Shown here piece by piece: positions 11,658 to 22,000 of a stretch of 64,000 bases of DNA (position 1 is the stretch's first letter; each line of letters starts with the position of its first letter). Location of the stretch: NCBI RefSeq assembly GCF_055900595.2, contig NZ_CM148325.1, one strand, 5' to 3'. The position numbers and the translations under genes were made by a program. Below the pieces are notes generated by a model, which did not search any database, was not told the DNA's origin, and saw only the letters and a list, made by a program, of their open reading frames with translations.

Positions 11658-11831
11658 ATTTTTCTCATTTTGATTTTATCAATTTGATTATTATTTATCA
11701 TAAAGAAACGTCGCGAGATTATTAAAGAATATCCATTAATGTGCAATTGAAATGTGATAATTATCACTGAACCGTTGTTGTCATTTGTTTTACAAAAGCA
11801 AGGGATTAAATCTCCTCCAATGGACAAAAAA

Positions 11832-13166
11832 ATGAATAATGACAATACCGATTACGTGAGTAATGAATCAGGGACGCTTTCGCGATTATTTAAACTACCT
11901 CAGCATGGGACCACCGTCCGCACAGAATTGATTGCGGGGATGACCACTTTTTTAACCATGGTGTACATCGTTTTTGTGAACCCGCAAATCCTCGGCGCGG
12001 CACAAATGGACCCGAAAGTGGTGTTTGTTACCACCTGTTTGATTGCCGGTATCGGCAGTATTGCGATGGGGATATTTGCTAACTTACCCGTGGCGCTGGC
12101 TCCGGCAATGGGACTGAACGCCTTCTTTGCGTTCGTGGTCGTGGGGGCGATGGGTATCTCCTGGCAGACCGGGATGGGCGCAATATTCTGGGGCGCAATT
12201 GGGCTATTTTTGCTCACGCTGTTTCGCATCCGGTACTGGATGATCTCCAACATTCCATTAAGTTTACGTATTGGTATCACTAGCGGAATCGGATTATTTA
12301 TCGCCTTAATGGGGTTAAAAAATACTGGTGTTATTGTCGCCAATAAAGACACCCTGGTGATGATTGGTGATTTAAGTTCTCACGGTGTGTTGTTAGGTAT
12401 ATTAGGGTTTTTTATTATAACCGTGTTGTCATCTCGTCATTTTCATGCCGCGGTGCTGGTCTCTATTGTGGTGACGTCTTGCTGTGGATTATTTTTCGGT
12501 GATGTTCATTTTAGCGGCGTCTATTCCATTCCGCCTGATATTAGCGGCGTCATTGGTGAAGTGGATTTGAGTGGCGCATTATCACTTGAACTCGCCGGTA
12601 TCATTTTCTCCTTTATGCTGATCAACCTATTTGATTCATCAGGAACATTAATCGGTGTGACTGATAAAGCTGGCTTAATAGATAGTAACGGTAAATTCCC
12701 TAATATGAATAAGGCGCTGTATGTTGATAGCGTCAGTTCGGTGGCGGGCGCGTTTATCGGCACCTCGTCTGTTACCGCCTATATTGAAAGTACTTCTGGT
12801 GTGGCAGTTGGTGGTCGAACGGGGCTGACTGCGGTCGTGGTCGGCATTATGTTTCTGTTGGTTATGTTTTTCTCGCCGCTGGTGGCAATGGTCCCTCCTT
12901 ACGCCACCGCCGGAGCGTTAATCTTTGTTGGCGTGCTGATGACCTCAAGCCTGGCGCGCGTTAACTGGGATGATTTTACCGAATCAGTACCTGCATTTAT
13001 TACTACGGTGATGATGCCCTTTACTTTCTCGATCACCGAAGGGATTGCGCTTGGCTTTATGTCGTACTGCATCATGAAGGTGTGCACCGGGCGCTGGCGC
13101 GATCTGAACCTGTGTGTGGTGGTGGTTGCAGCTCTGTTTGCTCTGAAGATTATTTTGGTGGATTAG
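11832..13166 (+). CDS. adeQ: Adenine permease (NCS2/AzgA family), 444 aa
   Basis: Multi-pass permease divergent from ade; start chosen at MNNDNTDYV (alternative ATG at 11820). Confidence 0.85.
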   Translation: MNNDNTDYVSNESGTLSRLFKLPQHGTTVRTELIAGMTTFLTMVYIVFVNPQILGAAQMDPKVVFVTTCLIAGIGSIAMGIFANLPVALAPAMGLNAFFAFVVVGAMGISWQTGMGAIFWGAIGLFLLTLFRIRYWMISNIPLSLRIGITSGIGLFIALMGLKNTGVIVANKDTLVMIGDLSSHGVLLGILGFFIITVLSSRHFHAAVLVSIVVTSCCGLFFGDVHFSGVYSIPPDISGVIGEVDLSGALSLELAGIIFSFMLINLFDSSGTLIGVTDKAGLIDSNGKFPNMNKALYVDSVSSVAGAFIGTSSVTAYIESTSGVAVGGRTGLTAVVVGIMFLLVMFFSPLVAMVPPYATAGALIFVGVLMTSSLARVNWDDFTESVPAFITTVMMPFTFSITEGIALGFMSYCIMKVCTGRWRDLNLCVVVVAALFALKIILVD

Positions 13167-13218
13167 TAACTGGCGAGGGTTTCCAGATATCATGAGTTCT
13201 GATTACGCAGGAGAACTC

Positions 13219-13671
13219 ATGATCTGGATAATGCTCGCTACGCTGGCGGTGGTGTTTGTAATTGGTTTTCGGGTGCTGACATCCGGGGCCAGAAAGGCGA
13301 TTCGCCGTCTCAGCGATCGGCTGAATATTGATGTCGTACCCGTGGAGTCGATGGTTGATCAAATGGGAAAGTCAGCCGGTGAGGAATTTTTACGTTATTT
13401 GCATCGCCCGGATGAGTCGCACCTGCAAAACGCCGCGCAGGTGTTGCTCATCTGGCAAATTGTCATTGTCGATGGAAGCGAACAGAACCTGCTGCAATGG
13501 CATCGGATTTTACAAAAAGCCCGTCTTGCCGCGCCGATTACCGATGCTCAGGTCAGGCTGGCGCTGGGTTTTCTGCGCGAAACCGAACCTGAAATGCAGG
13601 ATATTAATGCTTTTCAGATGCGCTATAACGCATTCTTTCAGCCTGCTGAGGGCGTTCACTGGCTGCATTAA
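13219..13671 (+). CDS. yicN: Conserved protein YicN, about 150 aa
   Basis: Small ORF with a single N-terminal hydrophobic segment, in the expected position after adeQ. Confidence 0.7.
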   Translation: MIWIMLATLAVVFVIGFRVLTSGARKAIRRLSDRLNIDVVPVESMVDQMGKSAGEEFLRYLHRPDESHLQNAAQVLLIWQIVIVDGSEQNLLQWHRILQKARLAAPITDAQVRLALGFLRETEPEMQDINAFQMRYNAFFQPAEGVHWLH

Positions 13672-13716: not shown

Positions 13717-13746
13717 GTGGATAAGGCGTGCACGCCGCATCCGGCA
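13717..13746. repeat. REP-like palindromic element
   Basis: GGATAAGGCGTGCACGCCGCATCCGGCA resembles the enterobacterial REP consensus. Confidence 0.5.
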
Positions 13747-13786: not shown

Positions 13787-14110
13787 TTACAGCAGCACCT
13801 CCAGCCCGTGTTTTTGCACAATGCTGAGCAGTTTTAATGAAATGCCATTGGGGCGTTTAGCGCCACTTTCCCATTTTTGTACAGTTGAAACGCTGGTATT
13901 GAGATAGTGAGCGAAGACGGGCTGACTCACTTTTAATTTTTCCCGCAGTGCTTTTATCTCAACAGGTTGTAAGTCTTGCACGCTGGTCAGGCAGGCTTTG
14001 TCAAAAGTACGCATCGTTTCGGCAGAAATAGCATCGACGCTGGACAATCCAGCAGCTGCGCTGTGAATAGCCTCAAATGCAGGACTTTTAAATTTAGTTT
14101 TTGCAGTCAT
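13787..14110 (-). CDS. XRE-family HTH protein, putative antitoxin (HigA-like), 107 aa
   Basis: C-terminal HTH-like segment (VSQPVFAHYLNTSVSTVQKWESG); overlaps the upstream toxin-like ORF by 17 nt. Confidence 0.7.
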   Translation of the reverse strand: MTAKTKFKSPAFEAIHSAAAGLSSVDAISAETMRTFDKACLTSVQDLQPVEIKALREKLKVSQPVFAHYLNTSVSTVQKWESGAKRPNGISLKLLSIVQKHGLEVLL

Positions 14111-14453
14111 AGCAGATCTCTGTCAGTTCTTTAGTGTTAATCATTGCTGTTAGTTGGGCTTTCGTCAGGAAGGCATAATGCTTTGCAAGTTCACGAAACC
14201 CAGCCAGTTCCTGACTATTGATGTTCGACATATCCTGTTTTGCATATAAAAACGTGTAAAACCAATTGCTTCCCCCTTTTGCCAGAATAATTGCACGCTC
14301 ACGATTTTGGTGAAGGCGCTTTTTAAAAACGCCACCACCAAGTGCATCAGCTTTACCTTGCTCCGTTTCTAAAATGGCCCGGCACAACTCTTCATCTGTT
14401 ATTGCATGAGACCTGGCTTCCCTTGCAAACCATTTGGTTTTAAACACGCGCAT
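14094..14453 (-). CDS. RelE/ParE-superfamily toxin-like protein, 119 aa
   Basis: Small basic protein (MRVFKTKWFAREAR...) upstream of and overlapping the HTH partner; toxin-first order as in HigBA modules. Confidence 0.65.
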   Translation of the reverse strand: MRVFKTKWFAREARSHAITDEELCRAILETEQGKADALGGGVFKKRLHQNRERAIILAKGGSNWFYTFLYAKQDMSNINSQELAGFRELAKHYAFLTKAQLTAMINTKELTEICYDCKN

Positions 14454-14680
14454 ATCGTTGAGGTCCTGTTATTAAAGTATATCACCAAGTGCAATACTTT
14501 ATCTCTTATTCCCAACCCAATCGCGAAAATGCATATCAGCTTGCCCTATGATTTTTATTTCTTCGAGCAGCCTCGAACTTTTCCCACAACACCGTAAAAG
14601 TTGCAAAAACGTTAAATGTGTCACACATTTCAATGTTAAAGTGGTCAGCTTTTCCTCTGAAACATGCCACGGGTAACACC

Positions 14681-15865
14681 ATGAGTGAATTTATTGCCGA
14701 AAACCGCGGCGCGGATGCCATCATCCGACCGAACTGGTCCGCCGTTTTCTCGGTAGCGTTTTGCGTCGCCTGCCTGATTATCGTTGAGTTTTTGCCCGTC
14801 AGTTTGTTGACGCCAATGGCCCAGGATTTAGGTATTTCGGAAGGGGTTGCCGGGCAATCGGTGACCGTGACCGCCTTTGTGGCAATGTTTGCCAGTTTGT
14901 TTATTACCCAGACAATTCAGGCCACTGACCGCCGCTACGTTGTTATTTTGTTTGCCGTTTTGCTGACGCTCTCCTGCTTGCTGGTTTCCTTTGCCAACTC
15001 ATTCAGTTTGCTTTTAATCGGTCGTGCCTGTCTGGGGTTGGCACTCGGCGGGTTCTGGGCGATGTCGGCGTCGCTGACCATGCGTCTGGTACCAGCGCGT
15101 ACGGTGCCGAAGGCGCTGTCGGTGATTTTCGGCGCGGTTTCTATTGCGCTGGTGATAGCCGCGCCGTTGGGTAGCTTTTTAGGTGAGCTTATCGGTTGGC
15201 GCAATGTCTTTAATGCGGCGGCGGTGATGGGCGTGCTGTGTATTATCTGGATTATCAAATCATTGCCTTCGCTGCCTGGCGAACCCTCGCATCAGAAGCA
15301 AAATACTTTCCGCTTATTACAGCGTCCGGGCGTGATGGCCGGGATGATCGCCATCTTCATGTCTTTCGCCGGGCAGTTTGCTTTCTTCACGTATATTCGT
15401 CCAGTGTATATGAATCTCGCAGGATTCGGCGTGGATGGCTTAACGCTGGTGCTGTTGAGTTTTGGTATCGCCAGCTTTATCGGCACGTCGCTTTCGTCGT
15501 TCATTCTTAAACATTCGGTAAAACTGGCCTTAGCAGGTGCGCCGTTAATACTGGCTCTGAGTGCGTTGGTGCTGACGTTGTGGGGAAGCGATAAAATCGT
15601 GGCGACCGGCGTTGCGATTATCTGGGGGCTGACTTTTGCTTTAATTCCCGTTGGCTGGTCAACGTGGATCACTCGCTCACTGGCCGATCAGGCAGAAAAG
15701 GCTGGGTCTATTCAGGTGGCCGTTATTCAGCTTGCCAATACCTGCGGTGCGGCAATCGGCGGTTATGCGTTGGATAACATTGGTCTGACTTCGCCGCTGA
15801 TGTTGTCCGGCACATTGATGTTGCTTACCGCGCTGTTAGTCACCGCAAAGGTGAAAATGAAGTAA
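14681..15865 (+). CDS. nepI: MFS purine ribonucleoside efflux pump NepI, about 394 aa
   Basis: 12-TMS MFS translation; start chosen at [10 protein letters not shown]. Confidence 0.85.
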
Positions 15866-16066: not shown

Positions 16067-19000
16067 ATGACAGGGAAAGCGCATGGGAACGGTAATCGTT
16101 GGGGCGATAACAGCGTATGTGGATTGGGGGATCGTTTACGTCGTCTGACCGCCGGTCTTTGCCTGATAACGCAAACTATTTTCCCTGTTATAGCTGCTGC
16201 TCCTACGCATGTTAACCCTGCGCATTCGGATACTGCCGCGTCACTGATCCTGTCGAACGTTAAAACTATTCCATACACCTTGGGGGCGTTGGAATCGCCA
16301 CCAACGGTCGCGGCACGCTTTGGTATTACCGTTGATGAATTACGTCGCCTGAATCAGTTCCGTACATTTGCGCGGGGCTTTGACAATGTGCGTCAGGGCG
16401 ATGAGATAGATGTACCACTCATCAACAGTAACAGCCCTGAAGCGCGCACTCTGAAAGCAATGCAGATGGAGCGCGACGGTAAAGATCCACAAATGCAGGT
16501 CGCGGAAGTGGCGCAACAAAGTGGGACACTTTTAGCGCGCGATATGGACAGCGAACAGGCTGCGAGTATGGCGCGTGGCTGGGTGGCTTCTTCTGTGTCT
16601 GCGCAGGCGACAGACTGGCTCAGCCGCTGGGGAACTGCCCGGGTATCTCTGGGTGTTGATGAAGATTTCAGCCTTAAAAGCTCTTCATTTGAATTTCTCC
16701 ATCCCTGGTACGAAACGCCAGATAACCTGGTCTTCAGCCAGCATGCACTCCACCGTACGGATGATCGCACTCAAACGAACCACGGTATCGGCTGGCGTTA
16801 TTTCACATCGAGCTGGATGTCGGGCATAAACCTGTTTATCGATCATGACCTGAGCCGCTATCACACCCGAACCGGGATGGGCGTTGAATACTGGCGCGAT
16901 TACCTGAAACTGAGCGGCAACGGTTATCTGCGCCTCAGTAACTGGCGTAGTGCACCGGAACTCGACAATGACTATGAAGCACGTCCGGCGAACGGGTGGG
17001 ATCTTCGCGCCGAAGGCTGGTTACCGGCCTGGCCGCAGCTGGGCGGCAAGTTGGTCTATGAACAATATTATGGCGATGAAGTGGCGCTGTTTGGTAAAGA
17101 CGAGCGACAAAATGATCCTCACGCGATTACCGCAGGTTTGAGTTACACCCCCGTTCCCCTGATCTCCTTTAGTGCCGAGCAACGGCAGGGCAAACAGGGA
17201 GAAAACGACACCCGAATTGGTATGGAGTTGACGTTGCAACCCGGTCATTCACTGCAAAAACAGCTCGATCCGGCTGAAGTTGCAGCACGACGCAGCCTTG
17301 CGGGCAGTCGCTATGACCTGGTCGATCGTAATAACAATATTGTCCTCGAATATCGCAAGAAAGAGCTGGTGCGGTTGACGCTGACCGATCCGCTGAAAGG
17401 CAAGCCGGGGGAGGTTAAATCGCTGGTTTCTTCCTTACAAACCAAATACGCGCTGAAAGGTTATGACATCGAAGCCGCTTCCTTGCAATCTGCGGGCGGG
17501 AAAGTTGCTGTTTCCGGCAAGGATATTCAGGTCACTATTCCACCCTACCGATTTACGGTAATGCCTGAAACCGACAACACTTACCCAATAACAGTTATAG
17601 CGGAAGATTCGAAAGGGAATTTCTCCCGGCGTGAAGAAAGTATGGTGGTTGTAGAAAAACCCACACTAAGCCTCGCTGATTCAACGCTTTCTGTCGATCT
17701 ACAAATTCTGCTTGCGGATGGAAAATCAATCTCAACGCTGACCTATACCGCGCGAGATTCCAGCGGCAAGCCTATCCCGGGTATGACATTAAAAACCCAT
17801 GCGAAAGGTTTGCAAGATTTCGCCCTAAGCGAATGGAAAGACAACGGTAACGGAACCTATACCCAGTTAGTTACCTCCGGGAAGACGTCAGGCGCGTTGT
17901 CGCTGATGCCACAATTTAACGGCGACGATGTTGCTAAAACACCAGCGCTGATTGCCATTGTGGCTAATATGGCATCCCGAGCGGACTCCATGATTGAAAC
18001 AGACCAGAATAATTACGTCGCGGGTAAGCCGATAGGCGTAAAAGTGACCCTGAAAGATGAGAATGGCAACGGGGTTACCGGAAGAAAAGAACTTCTTAAA
18101 CAGGCTGTTAAAGTAGACAACACGAAGACTGATGCTGTTAGTGCCTGGACGGAAGAAAGTGAGGGAGTTTACAAAGCAAACTATACGGCCCATCTCATTG
18201 GCGACAAATTAACGGCCCAGCTGACGATGCCCGGCTGGCAAACCAAGCATTCGGATGCGTTCAGTATTGCGGGTGATAAAGATACCGCCAAAATCGCTGC
18301 GATGCAGATCACCGCGAATAACGCAGTCGCCAGACGCGATCACAATACCGTCGCTGTGACGGTCAGGGACGTGCATCAAAATTTACTGCAGGGACAAAAT
18401 GTTACCTTCACGGTCGTGAATGGTGCGGCGGTTTTTGCCGATCCAAATGGCGGTATTGTGACGACAGATAAAGACGGGATTGCCAGCGTTAACCTTGCCA
18501 GTGACCAGGCGGTAAACAGTCTTATCAAGGCCGAGATCAATGGCAGTAGTCAGTCTGTGGAAGTGAGCTTTATCACTGGCGATATCTCGCAGCTAACCTC
18601 CACCATCAAGACGGACGATGTGTCATACACCGCGGGTGGCAAGATAAAAGTGACAGTCACCCTTATGGATGAGCAGAAAAACCGGGTGACAGGGATGGCT
18701 TCGCTGCTGGCAGGTAGCGGCGTGGTCGAGGTGAGCGGTACAGATACAAATGAAACGGGTAACTGGAGCGAAGAGTCTGATGGCGTTTACACCACCACCC
18801 GAACCGCGAAGATTGCTGGCAATAGCCATTACGCCACGCTGAAACTATCGACATGGAGTAGCGTGCAGCAATCCGATGCGTATGTCATCCGCGAAAGCGG
18901 AGCTGTGCTGGCTTATTCCTCTATCGTTACCGACAAAACGACCTATACCGCAGGCGGTGCGATTAAAGTTACGGTAACGCTCAAGGATAGCTATGAAAAC

Positions 19001-22000
19001 CTGGTCGGGGGGCAACGAGACGCTATCAGCCAGGCTATCCAGCTGCCAAATACAAAAGCGGAAAGCATTACCTGGAATGAAGATCAAAAAGGCATTTATA
19101 CCGCAACGTATACCGCTTTACTTCCTGGCACCGGTTTAAAAGCACAGCTACAGATGTCCGGCTGGGCGAGCGCCCTGACTTCAAATGTTTACAGTATTAG
19201 TGGCGATGCCGCCAGCGCACAAATCGTCGCGATGCAAGTGACAACGGGTAGCCTGGATGTGCTGGCCAATGGTAGCGATCAACATACGGTGAATGTTCGG
19301 GTGGAAGATCAGTTTGGCAATGTGCTGCCAGAGCAGACCGTCACCTTTACGGTGACGAAGGGGGCGGCTGTATTTGCCAATGCAGGGCAGAGTGCAGACA
19401 TCAGGACGGATGTGCATGGCATGGCAGAGGTTGATCTGAGCAGTACCGTAGCGGATGCCAGCACTGTTGAGGCTAAGGTCAATCAAAGCAGCGATAGTAA
19501 AACGGTGAACTTCGTTGCTGATGTCAGCACGGCGCGTATTGCTGATCTGGGGGTAACGCAGGATAACGCGGTGGCAGACGGCGCGACAGAGAACATGCTG
19601 TGGGTGAAAGTCACCGACGCGTTTGGCAATGCGCTGGGCGGACAGACGGTCAGCGTCTCAGCGGACAACGGGACAGCGGTTGCCGCGACGGTTATCACCG
19701 GGCCGGACGGCACGGCGATAATCACCGTCACCAGCCAGATCGCCGGAGCCAGTACGGTCACTGCCAGCATCAACAACAGCAGTCTGAGTCAGAATGTGAC
19801 ATTTATCCCCGATATCAGCACCGCGAAGATCGCGGATCTGGTGGTCATTAAGGACGGCTCAGTGGCAGACGGTTCGACGGCGAACACGCTGCGGGTGAAA
19901 GTCACCGACGCGTTCGGCAATGCGCTGGCCGGACAGACGGTCAGCGTCTCAGCGGACAACGGGGCAGCGGTTGCCGCGACGGTTATCACCGGGCCGGACG
20001 GCACTGTGGAAACCTCCGTCACCAGCCAGACGGCGGGCATCAGTACGGTCACTGCCAGCATCAACAACAGCAGTCTGAGTCAGAATGTGACATTTATCCC
20101 GGATGTCAGCACCGCGAAGATCGCGGATCTGGTGGTCATTAAGGACGGCTCAGTGGCAGACGGTTCGACGGCGAACACGCTGCGGGTGAAAGTCACCGAC
20201 GCGTTCGGCAATGCGCTGGCCGGACAGACGGTCAGCGTCTCAGCGGACAACGGGGCAGCGGTTGCCGCGACGGTTATCACCGGGCCGGACGGCACCGTGG
20301 AAATCTCCGTCACCAGCCAGACGGCGGGCATCAGTACAGTTACCGCAACCATCAACAACAGCACTCTGAGCCAGAACGTGACGTTTATTGCTGATGTCAG
20401 CACGGCGAAGATCGCGGTGCTGGAAGTGACGCAGGATTACGCCGTGGCAGATGGTTCGACGGCGAACACGCTGCGGGCGAGGGTGACCGATGCGTTCGGT
20501 AATACGCTTGCCGGGCAGACGGTCAGCGTGTTGGCGGATAACGGCGCAACGGTCGCTCCGACTGTCATCACAGGGCAGGACGGCACGGTGGAAATCAGTG
20601 TCACCAGCCAGACGGCGGGCAGCAGTGCGGTCACCGCCAGTATCAACAGCAGCAGTCAGAGCCGGGACGTGACGTTTATCGCGGATGTCAGGACGGCGAA
20701 GATCGCTGATCTGGTGGTCACCCGGGATAACTCAGTGGCTGACGGCGCAATGGCGAACACGCTGCGGGTGAGGGTGACGGATGCGTTCGGTAATGTGCTT
20801 GCCGGGCAGACGGTCAGCGTGTTGGCAGGCAACGGTGCCACGACTGCTCCGACGGTCACCACGCAGCCGGACGGCACGGCGGAGATCTCTGTCACCAGCC
20901 AGACCGCCGGAATCAGTGCGGTCACTGCCAGCATTAACAGCAGCAGCCAGAGCCGGAACGTCACGTTTATCGCCGATGTCAGGACGGCGCAGATCGCGAG
21001 TCTGGAGGTGACGCAGGATAACGCCGTGGCTGACGGCGCAATGGCGAACACGCTGCGGGTGAGGGTGACGGATGCGTTCGGTAATGTGCTTGCCGGGCAG
21101 ACGGTCAGCGTGACGGCAGACAACAGCGCAACGGTCACTCCGACGGTCACCACACAGCCGGACGGCACGGCGGAGATCTCTGTCACCAGCCAGACCGCCG
21201 GAACCAGTGTGATCACCGCCAGCGTCAACAACAGCAGCCAGAGCCGGAACGTGACGTTTATTGCGGATGTCAGCACGGCGCAGATCGCGGATCTGGTGGT
21301 CACCCGGGATAACGCGGTGGCAGACGGCGCGACGGCGAACACGCTGCAGGTGAAGGTGACCGATGCGTTCGGGAATGCGCTGGGCGGACAGACGGTCAGC
21401 GTGACGGCAGGCAACGGCGCAACGGTTGCTCCGACGGTGATTACAGAGCCGGACGGCACGGTGGAGATCAGTGTCACCAGTCAGACGGCGGGAGCCAGTA
21501 CTGTCACTGCCAGCATCAACAGCAGCAGCCTGAGCCGGAACGTGACGTTTGTCGCGGATGTCAGGACGGTGAAGATAGCGGATCTGGTCGTTAGCCAGGA
21601 TAACGCGGTGGCAGACGGCGCGACGGCGAACACGCTGCAGGTGAAGGTGACCGATGCGTTCGGGAATGCGCTGGGCGGACAGACGGTCAGCGTGACGGCA
21701 GGCAACGGCGCAACGGTTGCTCCGACGGTGATTACAGAGCCGGACGGCACGGTGGAGATCAGTGTCACCAGTCAGACGGCGGGAGCCAGTACTGTCACTG
21801 TCAGCATCAACAGCAGTACCGCGAGCCGGAACGTCACGTTTATCGCCGATGTCAGCACGGCGCAGATCGCGAGTCTGGAGGTGACGCAGGATAACTCAGT
21901 GGCTGACGGCGCAATGGCGAACACGCTGCGGGTGAAGGTCACCGATGCTAACGGGAATGCACTTGCCGGGCAGACGGTCAGCGTCTCAGCGGACAACGGG

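Follow-up and report, generated by a model that had tools for sequence, protein, structure and literature searches.

What are the two small genes that stand between yicN and nepI in some Escherichia coli genomes, and did they arrive there recently or were they lost elsewhere? We addressed these questions on a 64,000-nucleotide stretch of contig NZ_CM148325.1 (NCBI RefSeq assembly GCF_055900595.2), hereafter the window. An earlier note, made from its letters alone, had pointed to two overlapping minus-strand open reading frames (ORFs) of 119 and 107 aa, sharing 17 nt, and had read them as a HigBA-like toxin-antitoxin (TA) pair inserted between two genes that are adjacent in K-12. Both ORFs are present with exactly these sizes and this overlap (Table 1). 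We propose that they very likely form a chromosomal type II TA operon of the Vibrio cholerae HigB-2/HigA-2 family, an old resident of the gap that was lost in K-12-type lineages. The pair is an ordinary element of an already annotated kind; the earlier note identified it correctly but gave its history the wrong polarity.

The toxin

The 119-aa protein had been put forward as a RelE/ParE-like toxin candidate encoded ahead of its partner. This view is borne out by a full-length match to the Pfam family PF06296 (E 9.8e-42, 142 bits; residues 1-113 on model positions 1-120) and by V. cholerae HigB-2 (VcHigB2) as the closest fold. The profile search thus places the protein in a toxin family, not in a non-toxin one. 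The PDB sequence of VcHigB2 matches the same model (E 3.3e-8), and a 2025 survey lists the toxins of PF06296, which go by the names HigB2, RelE or StbE, as encoded first and as degrading mRNA in a ribosome-dependent manner (PMC11980606). The Pfam scan returned PF06296 alone: neither the profiles of the Rts1 and K-12 HigB proteins (PF05015 and PF09907) nor that of ParE (PF05016) matched the protein. The label HigBA-like holds as regards the HigB/HigA kind; more exactly, the pair belongs with HigB-2/HigA-2 of V. cholerae and not with the HigB families of Rts1 or K-12.

Structural comparison points in the same direction. Foldseek was run against the PDB with an AlphaFold (AF2) model of the toxin, built on 23 homologues (predicted local distance difference test score, pLDDT, 86; predicted template modelling score 0.80). 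Ranks 1-7 were all VcHigB2 chains (probability 0.99-1.0, template modelling score 0.43-0.60), with modest E-values (3e-3), followed by Mycobacterium tuberculosis HigB1 and YoeB; a ParE structure first appeared at rank 46, with E ~1.

Candidate active-site residues can also be named. Mutagenesis of VcHigB2 has shown that the catalytic residues R51, R64, Y82 and K84 matter (PMC5416850). R46, Y70 and K72 of the E. coli toxin align with three of these and are invariant or nearly so in the 23 homologues, position 70 being Y or F. From strand topology and the Pfam model coordinates, we infer that the equivalent of R64 is R53, a nearly invariant residue that opens the predicted strand 53-60. Ribosome-dependent cleavage of mRNA in the A site is known for VcHigB2 (PMC5416850), and by homology the E. 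coli toxin would act in the same way.

RefSeq names the protein "type II toxin-antitoxin system RelE/ParE family toxin" and gives it as a 117-aa form starting at the GTG at 14447. The ATG two codons upstream is better spaced to the AGGA motif, and an ATG start followed by arginine (M-R, ATG-CGN) is kept in other genera. In the cryptic Escherichia clade ATA replaces this ATG (locus L010, 2995..3003), leaving the GTG as the sole start.

The antitoxin and the organisation of the pair

The second protein had been described as an XRE-type helix-turn-helix (HTH) protein. It matches HTH_3 (E 1.2e-7), and V. cholerae HigA-2 (VcHigA2) is its best relative in the PDB (5jaa, E 8.3e-10), residues 46-102 aligning to VcHigA2 residues 38-94. 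Pfam also reports a match of residues 29-101 to the C-terminal part of the MqsA_antitoxin model. In RefSeq the protein is named "helix-turn-helix domain-containing protein".

The N-terminal ~45 residues are strongly conserved among the orthologues of eight taxa, and a search for relatives of this part detected none, nor any sequence similarity to the N-terminus of VcHigA2. Their conservation fits a toxin-binding role, presumed by analogy with VcHigA2.

The eight taxa are E. coli, the cryptic Escherichia clade, Citrobacter koseri, Salmonella, Klebsiella oxytoca, Yersinia enterocolitica, Dickeya and Pantoea. In all of them two small co-oriented genes pair a toxin with an antitoxin. The 17-nt overlap is also called in Citrobacter, Salmonella, Klebsiella, Yersinia, Dickeya and the cryptic clade, and the called overlap of the Pantoea pair is 23 nt. 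Such an arrangement would couple the translation of the two genes.

Distribution and ancestry

Occupancy of the yicN-nepI junction was surveyed in 5426 complete E. coli genomes. The pair is carried by 1716 of them, O157:H7 and O25b:H4-ST131 strains included, always as one chromosomal copy and never on a plasmid; in at least 1714 it lies at this junction. The toxin is already named in RefSeq in these 1716 genomes, and both exact protein sequences occur on at least 1000 public contigs. The empty allele is found in 3668 genomes, K-12 and HS among them. It carries a 43-bp filler in place of the 842-bp variable segment delimited by BLAST and by MAFFT alignment against strain HS, so that yicN and nepI are adjacent in K-12-type genomes, as the earlier note had stated. 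The left edge of the segment abuts a repetitive extragenic palindromic (REP) element, and at the other side the 94 bp upstream of nepI are retained in full in empty-allele genomes. We found no direct repeats flanking the segment and no integrase, transposase or other mobility gene next to the pair.

The claim that the pair was inserted here is contradicted by its distribution in other genera. The nepI-yicN gap of the cryptic Escherichia clade, of C. koseri and of K. oxytoca holds an orthologous pair, and in Salmonella such a pair adjoins nepI; these orthologues match the E. coli pair in gene sizes and in the 17-nt overlap. We take the Salmonella locus to be STM3777-STM3778 of S. Typhimurium, judging from its gene neighbourhood and the gene order of LT2; this locus is the probable orthologue of the pair. 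In Yersinia, Dickeya and Pantoea the module sits at other loci.

Divergence also matches that of the flanking genes. YicN and NepI are 83% and 88% identical to their C. koseri counterparts, the toxin 72% and the antitoxin 85%. Synonymous divergence (dS) from the cryptic clade amounts to 0.215 and 0.219 in the pair, 0.219 in yicN and 0.359 in nepI. The ratio of nonsynonymous to synonymous divergence (dN/dS) is 0.04-0.12 for both genes (0.06-0.12 for the toxin). Since the same slot is filled in the outgroups and the dS equals that of yicN, the module was inherited together with its neighbours and the K-12 state represents a loss. The module has therefore long occupied the nepI-yicN gap in Enterobacteriaceae, passed on vertically and kept under purifying selection, and about two thirds of the sequenced E. 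coli, K-12 included, have lost it. The segment has a lower G+C content (~0.42-0.44) than the flanking genes (0.50-0.55), which would fit a foreign origin that predates the split of these genera.

Some genomes and loci depart from these patterns. Both the occupied and the standard empty allele are missing from ~40 of the 5426 genomes, such as strain MS 57-2, in which the match ends at query base 608. Some empty alleles are only ~96% identical to the common one, and the absence allele thus stands on more than one sequence background. Part of the 43-bp filler matches the inside of the toxin gene at 16 of 19 positions, a match equalled in 70 of 2000 shuffles, and a colinear "spliced" alignment was not significant (36/300); we do not claim on this evidence that the filler is a deletion scar. 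A 77%-identical copy in strain HS-02 (locus L003, NZ_CP172818.1, 3001..3625) was rejected as a divergent allele. It is annotated as a frameshifted toxin pseudogene, is full of T, C and G homopolymer runs and looks like a consensus or assembly artefact.

In Dickeya and Pantoea (loci L016 and L017, ~2046..3667) the pair adjoins genes for a glutamine amidotransferase (pabA-like) and an aminotransferase (argD-like), and the Pantoea antitoxin abuts a fic-yhfG pair. This neighbourhood suggests a second long-conserved chromosomal slot outside Enterobacteriaceae proper.

The putative operator region

The AAGTAT...ATACTT inverted repeat that had been noticed upstream of the toxin gene is present and longer than described. 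It belongs to a 29-bp near-palindrome with 13-nt arms, 11/13 complementary, around a 3-nt spacer. Its degenerate pattern occurs once in the window, against 0.01 expected by chance. In an alignment of the upstream regions of the eight taxa, CAC-N3-GTG-n-TATA is invariant, and no other block upstream of the ribosome-binding site is strongly conserved; the consensus of the palindrome is TAGCAC-N3-GTGCTA. The core is invariant also in the three taxa that carry the module at other loci, so that it spans three different loci in all. The block moves with the module to different loci and therefore belongs to it.

The right arm of the palindrome contains an extended -10-like element, which reads TGnTATA(C/T/G)T across the alignment. 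We called this promoter by eye only, because a scan of the region for consensus -35/-10 elements and terminators returned nothing and thus no canonical promoter. Between the palindrome and the toxin start, ACAGGA is kept in seven of the eight taxa, Pantoea being the one that differs. The palindrome overlapping the -10-like element is probably an autoregulatory operator, judging from the sequence. The footprinted operator of VcHigA2 is likewise a single inverted repeat over the -10 element, TGTACGC-N5-GCGTACA (PMC11006873).

A further indication comes from Salmonella, where the sole CCWGG site of the 215-bp region between nepI and the toxin gene falls at the centre of the palindrome. A 2026 preprint counts nepI and STM3777 among the genes with an unmethylated CCWGG site upstream, and names the two as sharing their upstream region (10.64898/2026.01.27.702048). 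Protection of the site from Dcm would be an indirect hint that the operator is occupied in vivo.

Two other repeats were observed near the operator. Its 11-nt centre recurs exactly inside the toxin gene, 147 bp away, on codons of the conserved D-A-L-G-G motif; a region of this size would be expected to hold about 0.1 exact 11-mer repeats. The internal copy may be a weak half-site but is probably due to chance, because the Ala codon that creates it is missing in other genera. A perfect 8-nt inverted repeat lies ~50 bp upstream of the nepI start, in a block that the empty allele retains and that C. koseri and Salmonella conserve in part. This repeat may be a regulatory site of nepI; compared by eye with a PurR box, it did not fit.

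Proposed function and alternative explanations

Considering the above results, the pair is most likely a working module of the HigBA-2 type, its biochemistry being modelled on that of V. cholerae. A single promoter would drive the toxin and then the antitoxin, with coupled translation. A dimer of the antitoxin would bind the single palindromic operator through its C-terminal HTH domain and, because the operator overlaps the -10 element, such binding would repress the operon. Neutralisation would fall to the conserved N-terminal part of the antitoxin (~45 residues), which would wrap the toxin. Upon depletion of the antitoxin, free toxin would enter the ribosomal A site and cleave the mRNA through an Arg/Arg/Tyr/Lys site (R46, R53, Y70 and K72), and translation would stop. 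Toxicity, RNA cleavage, neutralisation and DNA binding are all attributed to the E. coli pair by homology.

Several observations weigh against this reading. The toxin has a C-terminal helix plus strand (~97-115) that VcHigB2 lacks. Searches of the PDB with the toxin (phmmer) and with the 23-sequence toxin profile gave no match, hhalign of the toxin with VcHigB2 gave a probability of 3%, and no NCBIfam model matches the toxin; the link to VcHigB2 was made through Pfam and Foldseek instead. Sequence aligners (MAFFT and pairwise) set N63, not an arginine, opposite R64 of VcHigB2. We take this pairing as a misalignment, in which the "GGS" anchor skips a β-strand, since the strand exists in both proteins. 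An AlphaFold model of the fused toxin-(GGGGS)5-antitoxin, based on 8 paired sequences, was all-helical with a mean pLDDT of 44. The searchable literature yielded no experiment on the E. coli pair. The sole functional datum comes from a retracted paper, in which overexpressed STM3777 "only slightly attenuated" growth (PMC3868539).

Four other explanations were weighed, and the evidence favours none of them. The first keeps the same molecular mechanism and makes phage infection, rather than stress, the trigger, so that the pair would act in abortive infection. Modules of the RelE/ParE superfamily are discussed as defence toxins (PMC11980606), and the presence of the pair is polymorphic within E. 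coli. We nevertheless consider such a role unlikely: PADLOC has no match to the toxin and only a generic HTH match to the antitoxin, no defence genes are adjacent, and such long vertical inheritance at a single housekeeping locus would be atypical of a defence island.

Alternatively, the pair could be a domesticated remnant, its toxin weak or inactive and its HTH protein kept as a regulator of host genes such as the divergent nepI. Retention at one site over four genera is unusual for a selfish module, conservation is higher in the antitoxin (85% identity to C. koseri) than in the toxin (72%), the toxin gene and nepI have their intergenic region in common, and the weak growth inhibition by STM3777 in the retracted study would also fit. 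Against this, the dN/dS of the toxin is low and R46, R53, Y70 and K72 are kept; the operator is much closer to the toxin start (20 bp) than to that of nepI (~180 bp) and accompanies the module to loci without nepI; and in empty-allele genomes the 94 bp preceding nepI are intact. On balance, domestication appears improbable to us. We attach equally little probability to a broader form of it, in which the pair is a domesticated fixture of the nepI-yicN gap in Escherichia, Citrobacter, K. oxytoca and Salmonella, kept for a host function. If that were true, translation arrest or repression by the HTH protein might be coupled to purine-nucleoside efflux by nepI, rather than serving selfish addiction, and the loss toward K-12 would have hidden the module from the standard E. 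coli TA inventory. In a lesser version of this idea, the C-terminal helix plus strand may mark out the majority form of PF06296, which is structurally unsolved and would be neutralised in a different way.

A recent insertion, with a small mobile islet entering the yicN-nepI junction of some E. coli lineages, would account for the absence from K-12-type genomes and for the low G+C content, and the other loci in Yersinia, Dickeya and Pantoea indicate that the module has moved over deep time. This reading is largely refuted and, in our view, very improbable: the slot is filled in the cryptic clade, C. koseri and K. oxytoca, with the pair adjoining nepI in Salmonella; the synonymous divergence of the pair equals that of yicN, and its identities to C. 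koseri stand beside those of yicN and nepI; no integrase, transposase or flanking direct repeats adjoin it; and it never occurs on plasmids or in two copies. Finally, a gyrase poison of the ParE type in place of an mRNA endonuclease, which the generic RefSeq name "RelE/ParE family" and the BECR fold common to both kinds of toxin (PMC11980606) might evoke, is the least credible alternative, given PF06296 as the sole Pfam match, ribosome-dependent RNases (HigB2, HigB1 and YoeB) as the closest structures well ahead of ParE at rank 46, and the preserved RelE-like Arg/Tyr/Lys residues.

Features of the locus and its neighbours

The coordinates of the features are collected in Table 1. adeQ and yicN lie on one side of the pair and nepI, divergent from the toxin gene, on the other; these names were taken from the identical RefSeq region. 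The REP-like element that had been reported to flank one side matches the REP core pattern with 0 mismatches, directly outside the variable segment, and one further copy of the pattern occurs within the window. It sits in the flank common to genomes without the pair, as seen in the empty allele of strain HS, and C. koseri has no REP at the equivalent place. The REP is thus a neighbour and not part of the TA module.

Just downstream of nepI lies a large ORF with many tandem immunoglobulin-like (Ig-like) repeats, whose identical RefSeq sequence is named iatC, inverse autotransporter adhesin IatC. Its 5' part occurs in 754 of the 5426 genomes, mostly at 90-95% identity and at >=99% in only 8. Strain Z0117EC0005, the best full-length match for the TA region, has an IS3 transposase and a CbtA-family toxin at the iatC position.

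Table 1. Coordinates of the TA pair, its probable regulatory elements and its surroundings in the window
Feature	Position	Strand	Description
Toxin gene	14094..14453	-	ORF, 119 aa, HigB-2 family (Pfam PF06296 "RelE")
Antitoxin gene	13787..14110	-	ORF, 107 aa, N-terminal ~45 residues plus C-terminal XRE-type HTH (~46-102)
Toxin stop region / antitoxin start overlap	14094..14110	-	17 nt
Probable operator	14473..14501		29-bp near-palindrome TAAAGTATATCAC-CAA-GTGCAATACTTTA, 20 bp upstream of toxin ATG; arms 14473-14485 and 14489-14501
Extended -10-like element	14476..14484	-	TGATATACT, in right arm of palindrome, found by eye
Shine-Dalgarno-like AGGA	14464..14467	-	10 nt upstream of toxin ATG
Variable segment	13745..14586		842 bp; 43-bp filler instead in K-12-type genomes
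REP element core	13719..13745	-	REP core pattern, 0 mismatches
Operator centre	14483..14493		CACCAAGTGCA, 11 nt
Internal copy of operator centre	14336..14346		CACCAAGTGCA, inside toxin gene
Inverted repeat upstream of nepI	14614..14630		AAATGTGT-C-ACACATTT, perfect, 8-nt arms
Block containing this repeat	~14587-14680		Kept in empty allele
adeQ	11754..13166	+	ORF
yicN	13192..13671	+	ORF
nepI	14618..15865	+	ORF
iatC	16067..25744	+	ORF, 3225 aa

Significance

A search of the literature on yicN/nepI together with TA systems, of RefSeq accessions and of E. coli TA catalogues (CFT073, the adherent-invasive strain NRG857c and a hybrid strain) found the E. coli pair undescribed. TA27 of NRG857c was considered as the same pair and rejected on account of different gene sizes. 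In the CFT073 study, deletions were confined to six type II loci, each bearing the name of a K-12 system. A K-12-based TA inventory skips the locus because it is missing from K-12; the module is nonetheless present in O157:H7 and ST131 genomes. As a discovery the pair matters little, as the mechanism of its family has already been solved in V. cholerae. It is rather a clean case of a chromosomal TA pair that is inherited vertically across genera together with its operator and is not mobile, and it is therefore suited to tests of why chromosomal TA modules are kept.

Comparison with known systems

Antitoxins of the MqsA and NadS types resemble the 107-aa protein in their C-terminal HTH domain (NCBIfam scores of 41 bits each). 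The scores lie below the curated cut-offs (41.1 bits against 61.8 for MqsA, TIGR03830; 41 against 60 for NadS), and the MqsA profile is matched at positions 47-119 only. Assignment to the MqsA family was rejected, since the score is below the cut-off and the N-terminal zinc-binding (CxxC) part is absent.

The HigB/HigA pairs of E. coli K-12 (YgjN/YgjM) and of Rts1 share with the present pair the toxin-first order, a ribosome-dependent RNase of the RelE superfamily and an XRE-HTH antitoxin, but their toxins belong to PF09907 and PF05015, respectively, and neither family matches the 119-aa protein. Rts1 HigB lacks the C-terminal helix and the RelE-like active site that toxins of the VcHigB2 type retain (PMC5416850).

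Among the known systems, the Salmonella pair beside nepI shows 70% identity in the toxin and 80% in the antitoxin, with the same lengths (119 and 107 aa) and the same 17-nt overlap. It differs in its far flank, which is a phosphotransferase system (PTS)/aldolase cluster instead of yicN. STM3777-STM3778 is listed in TA catalogues as a TA locus of the RelE superfamily.

The V. cholerae HigB-2/HigA-2 pair resides in the superintegron, in contrast to the conserved housekeeping gap described here. Compared with this system (VCA0468-0469; PDB 5JA8, 5JAA and 8A0X), the E. coli toxin shows only ~20% identity, beyond the detection of phmmer and hhalign, its β2-β3 loop is shorter, and the extra C-terminal helix plus strand comprises ~25 residues. 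The N-termini of the antitoxins are without detectable similarity, and the probable operator, of the AGCAC-N3-GTGCT type here, differs from TGTACGC-N5-GCGTACA in both sequence and spacing. The likenesses are a PF06296 toxin encoded first, the closest solved toxin fold, an HTH domain that is the best PDB match to the antitoxin, and a single inverted repeat, here the probable operator, placed over the -10 or -10-like element.

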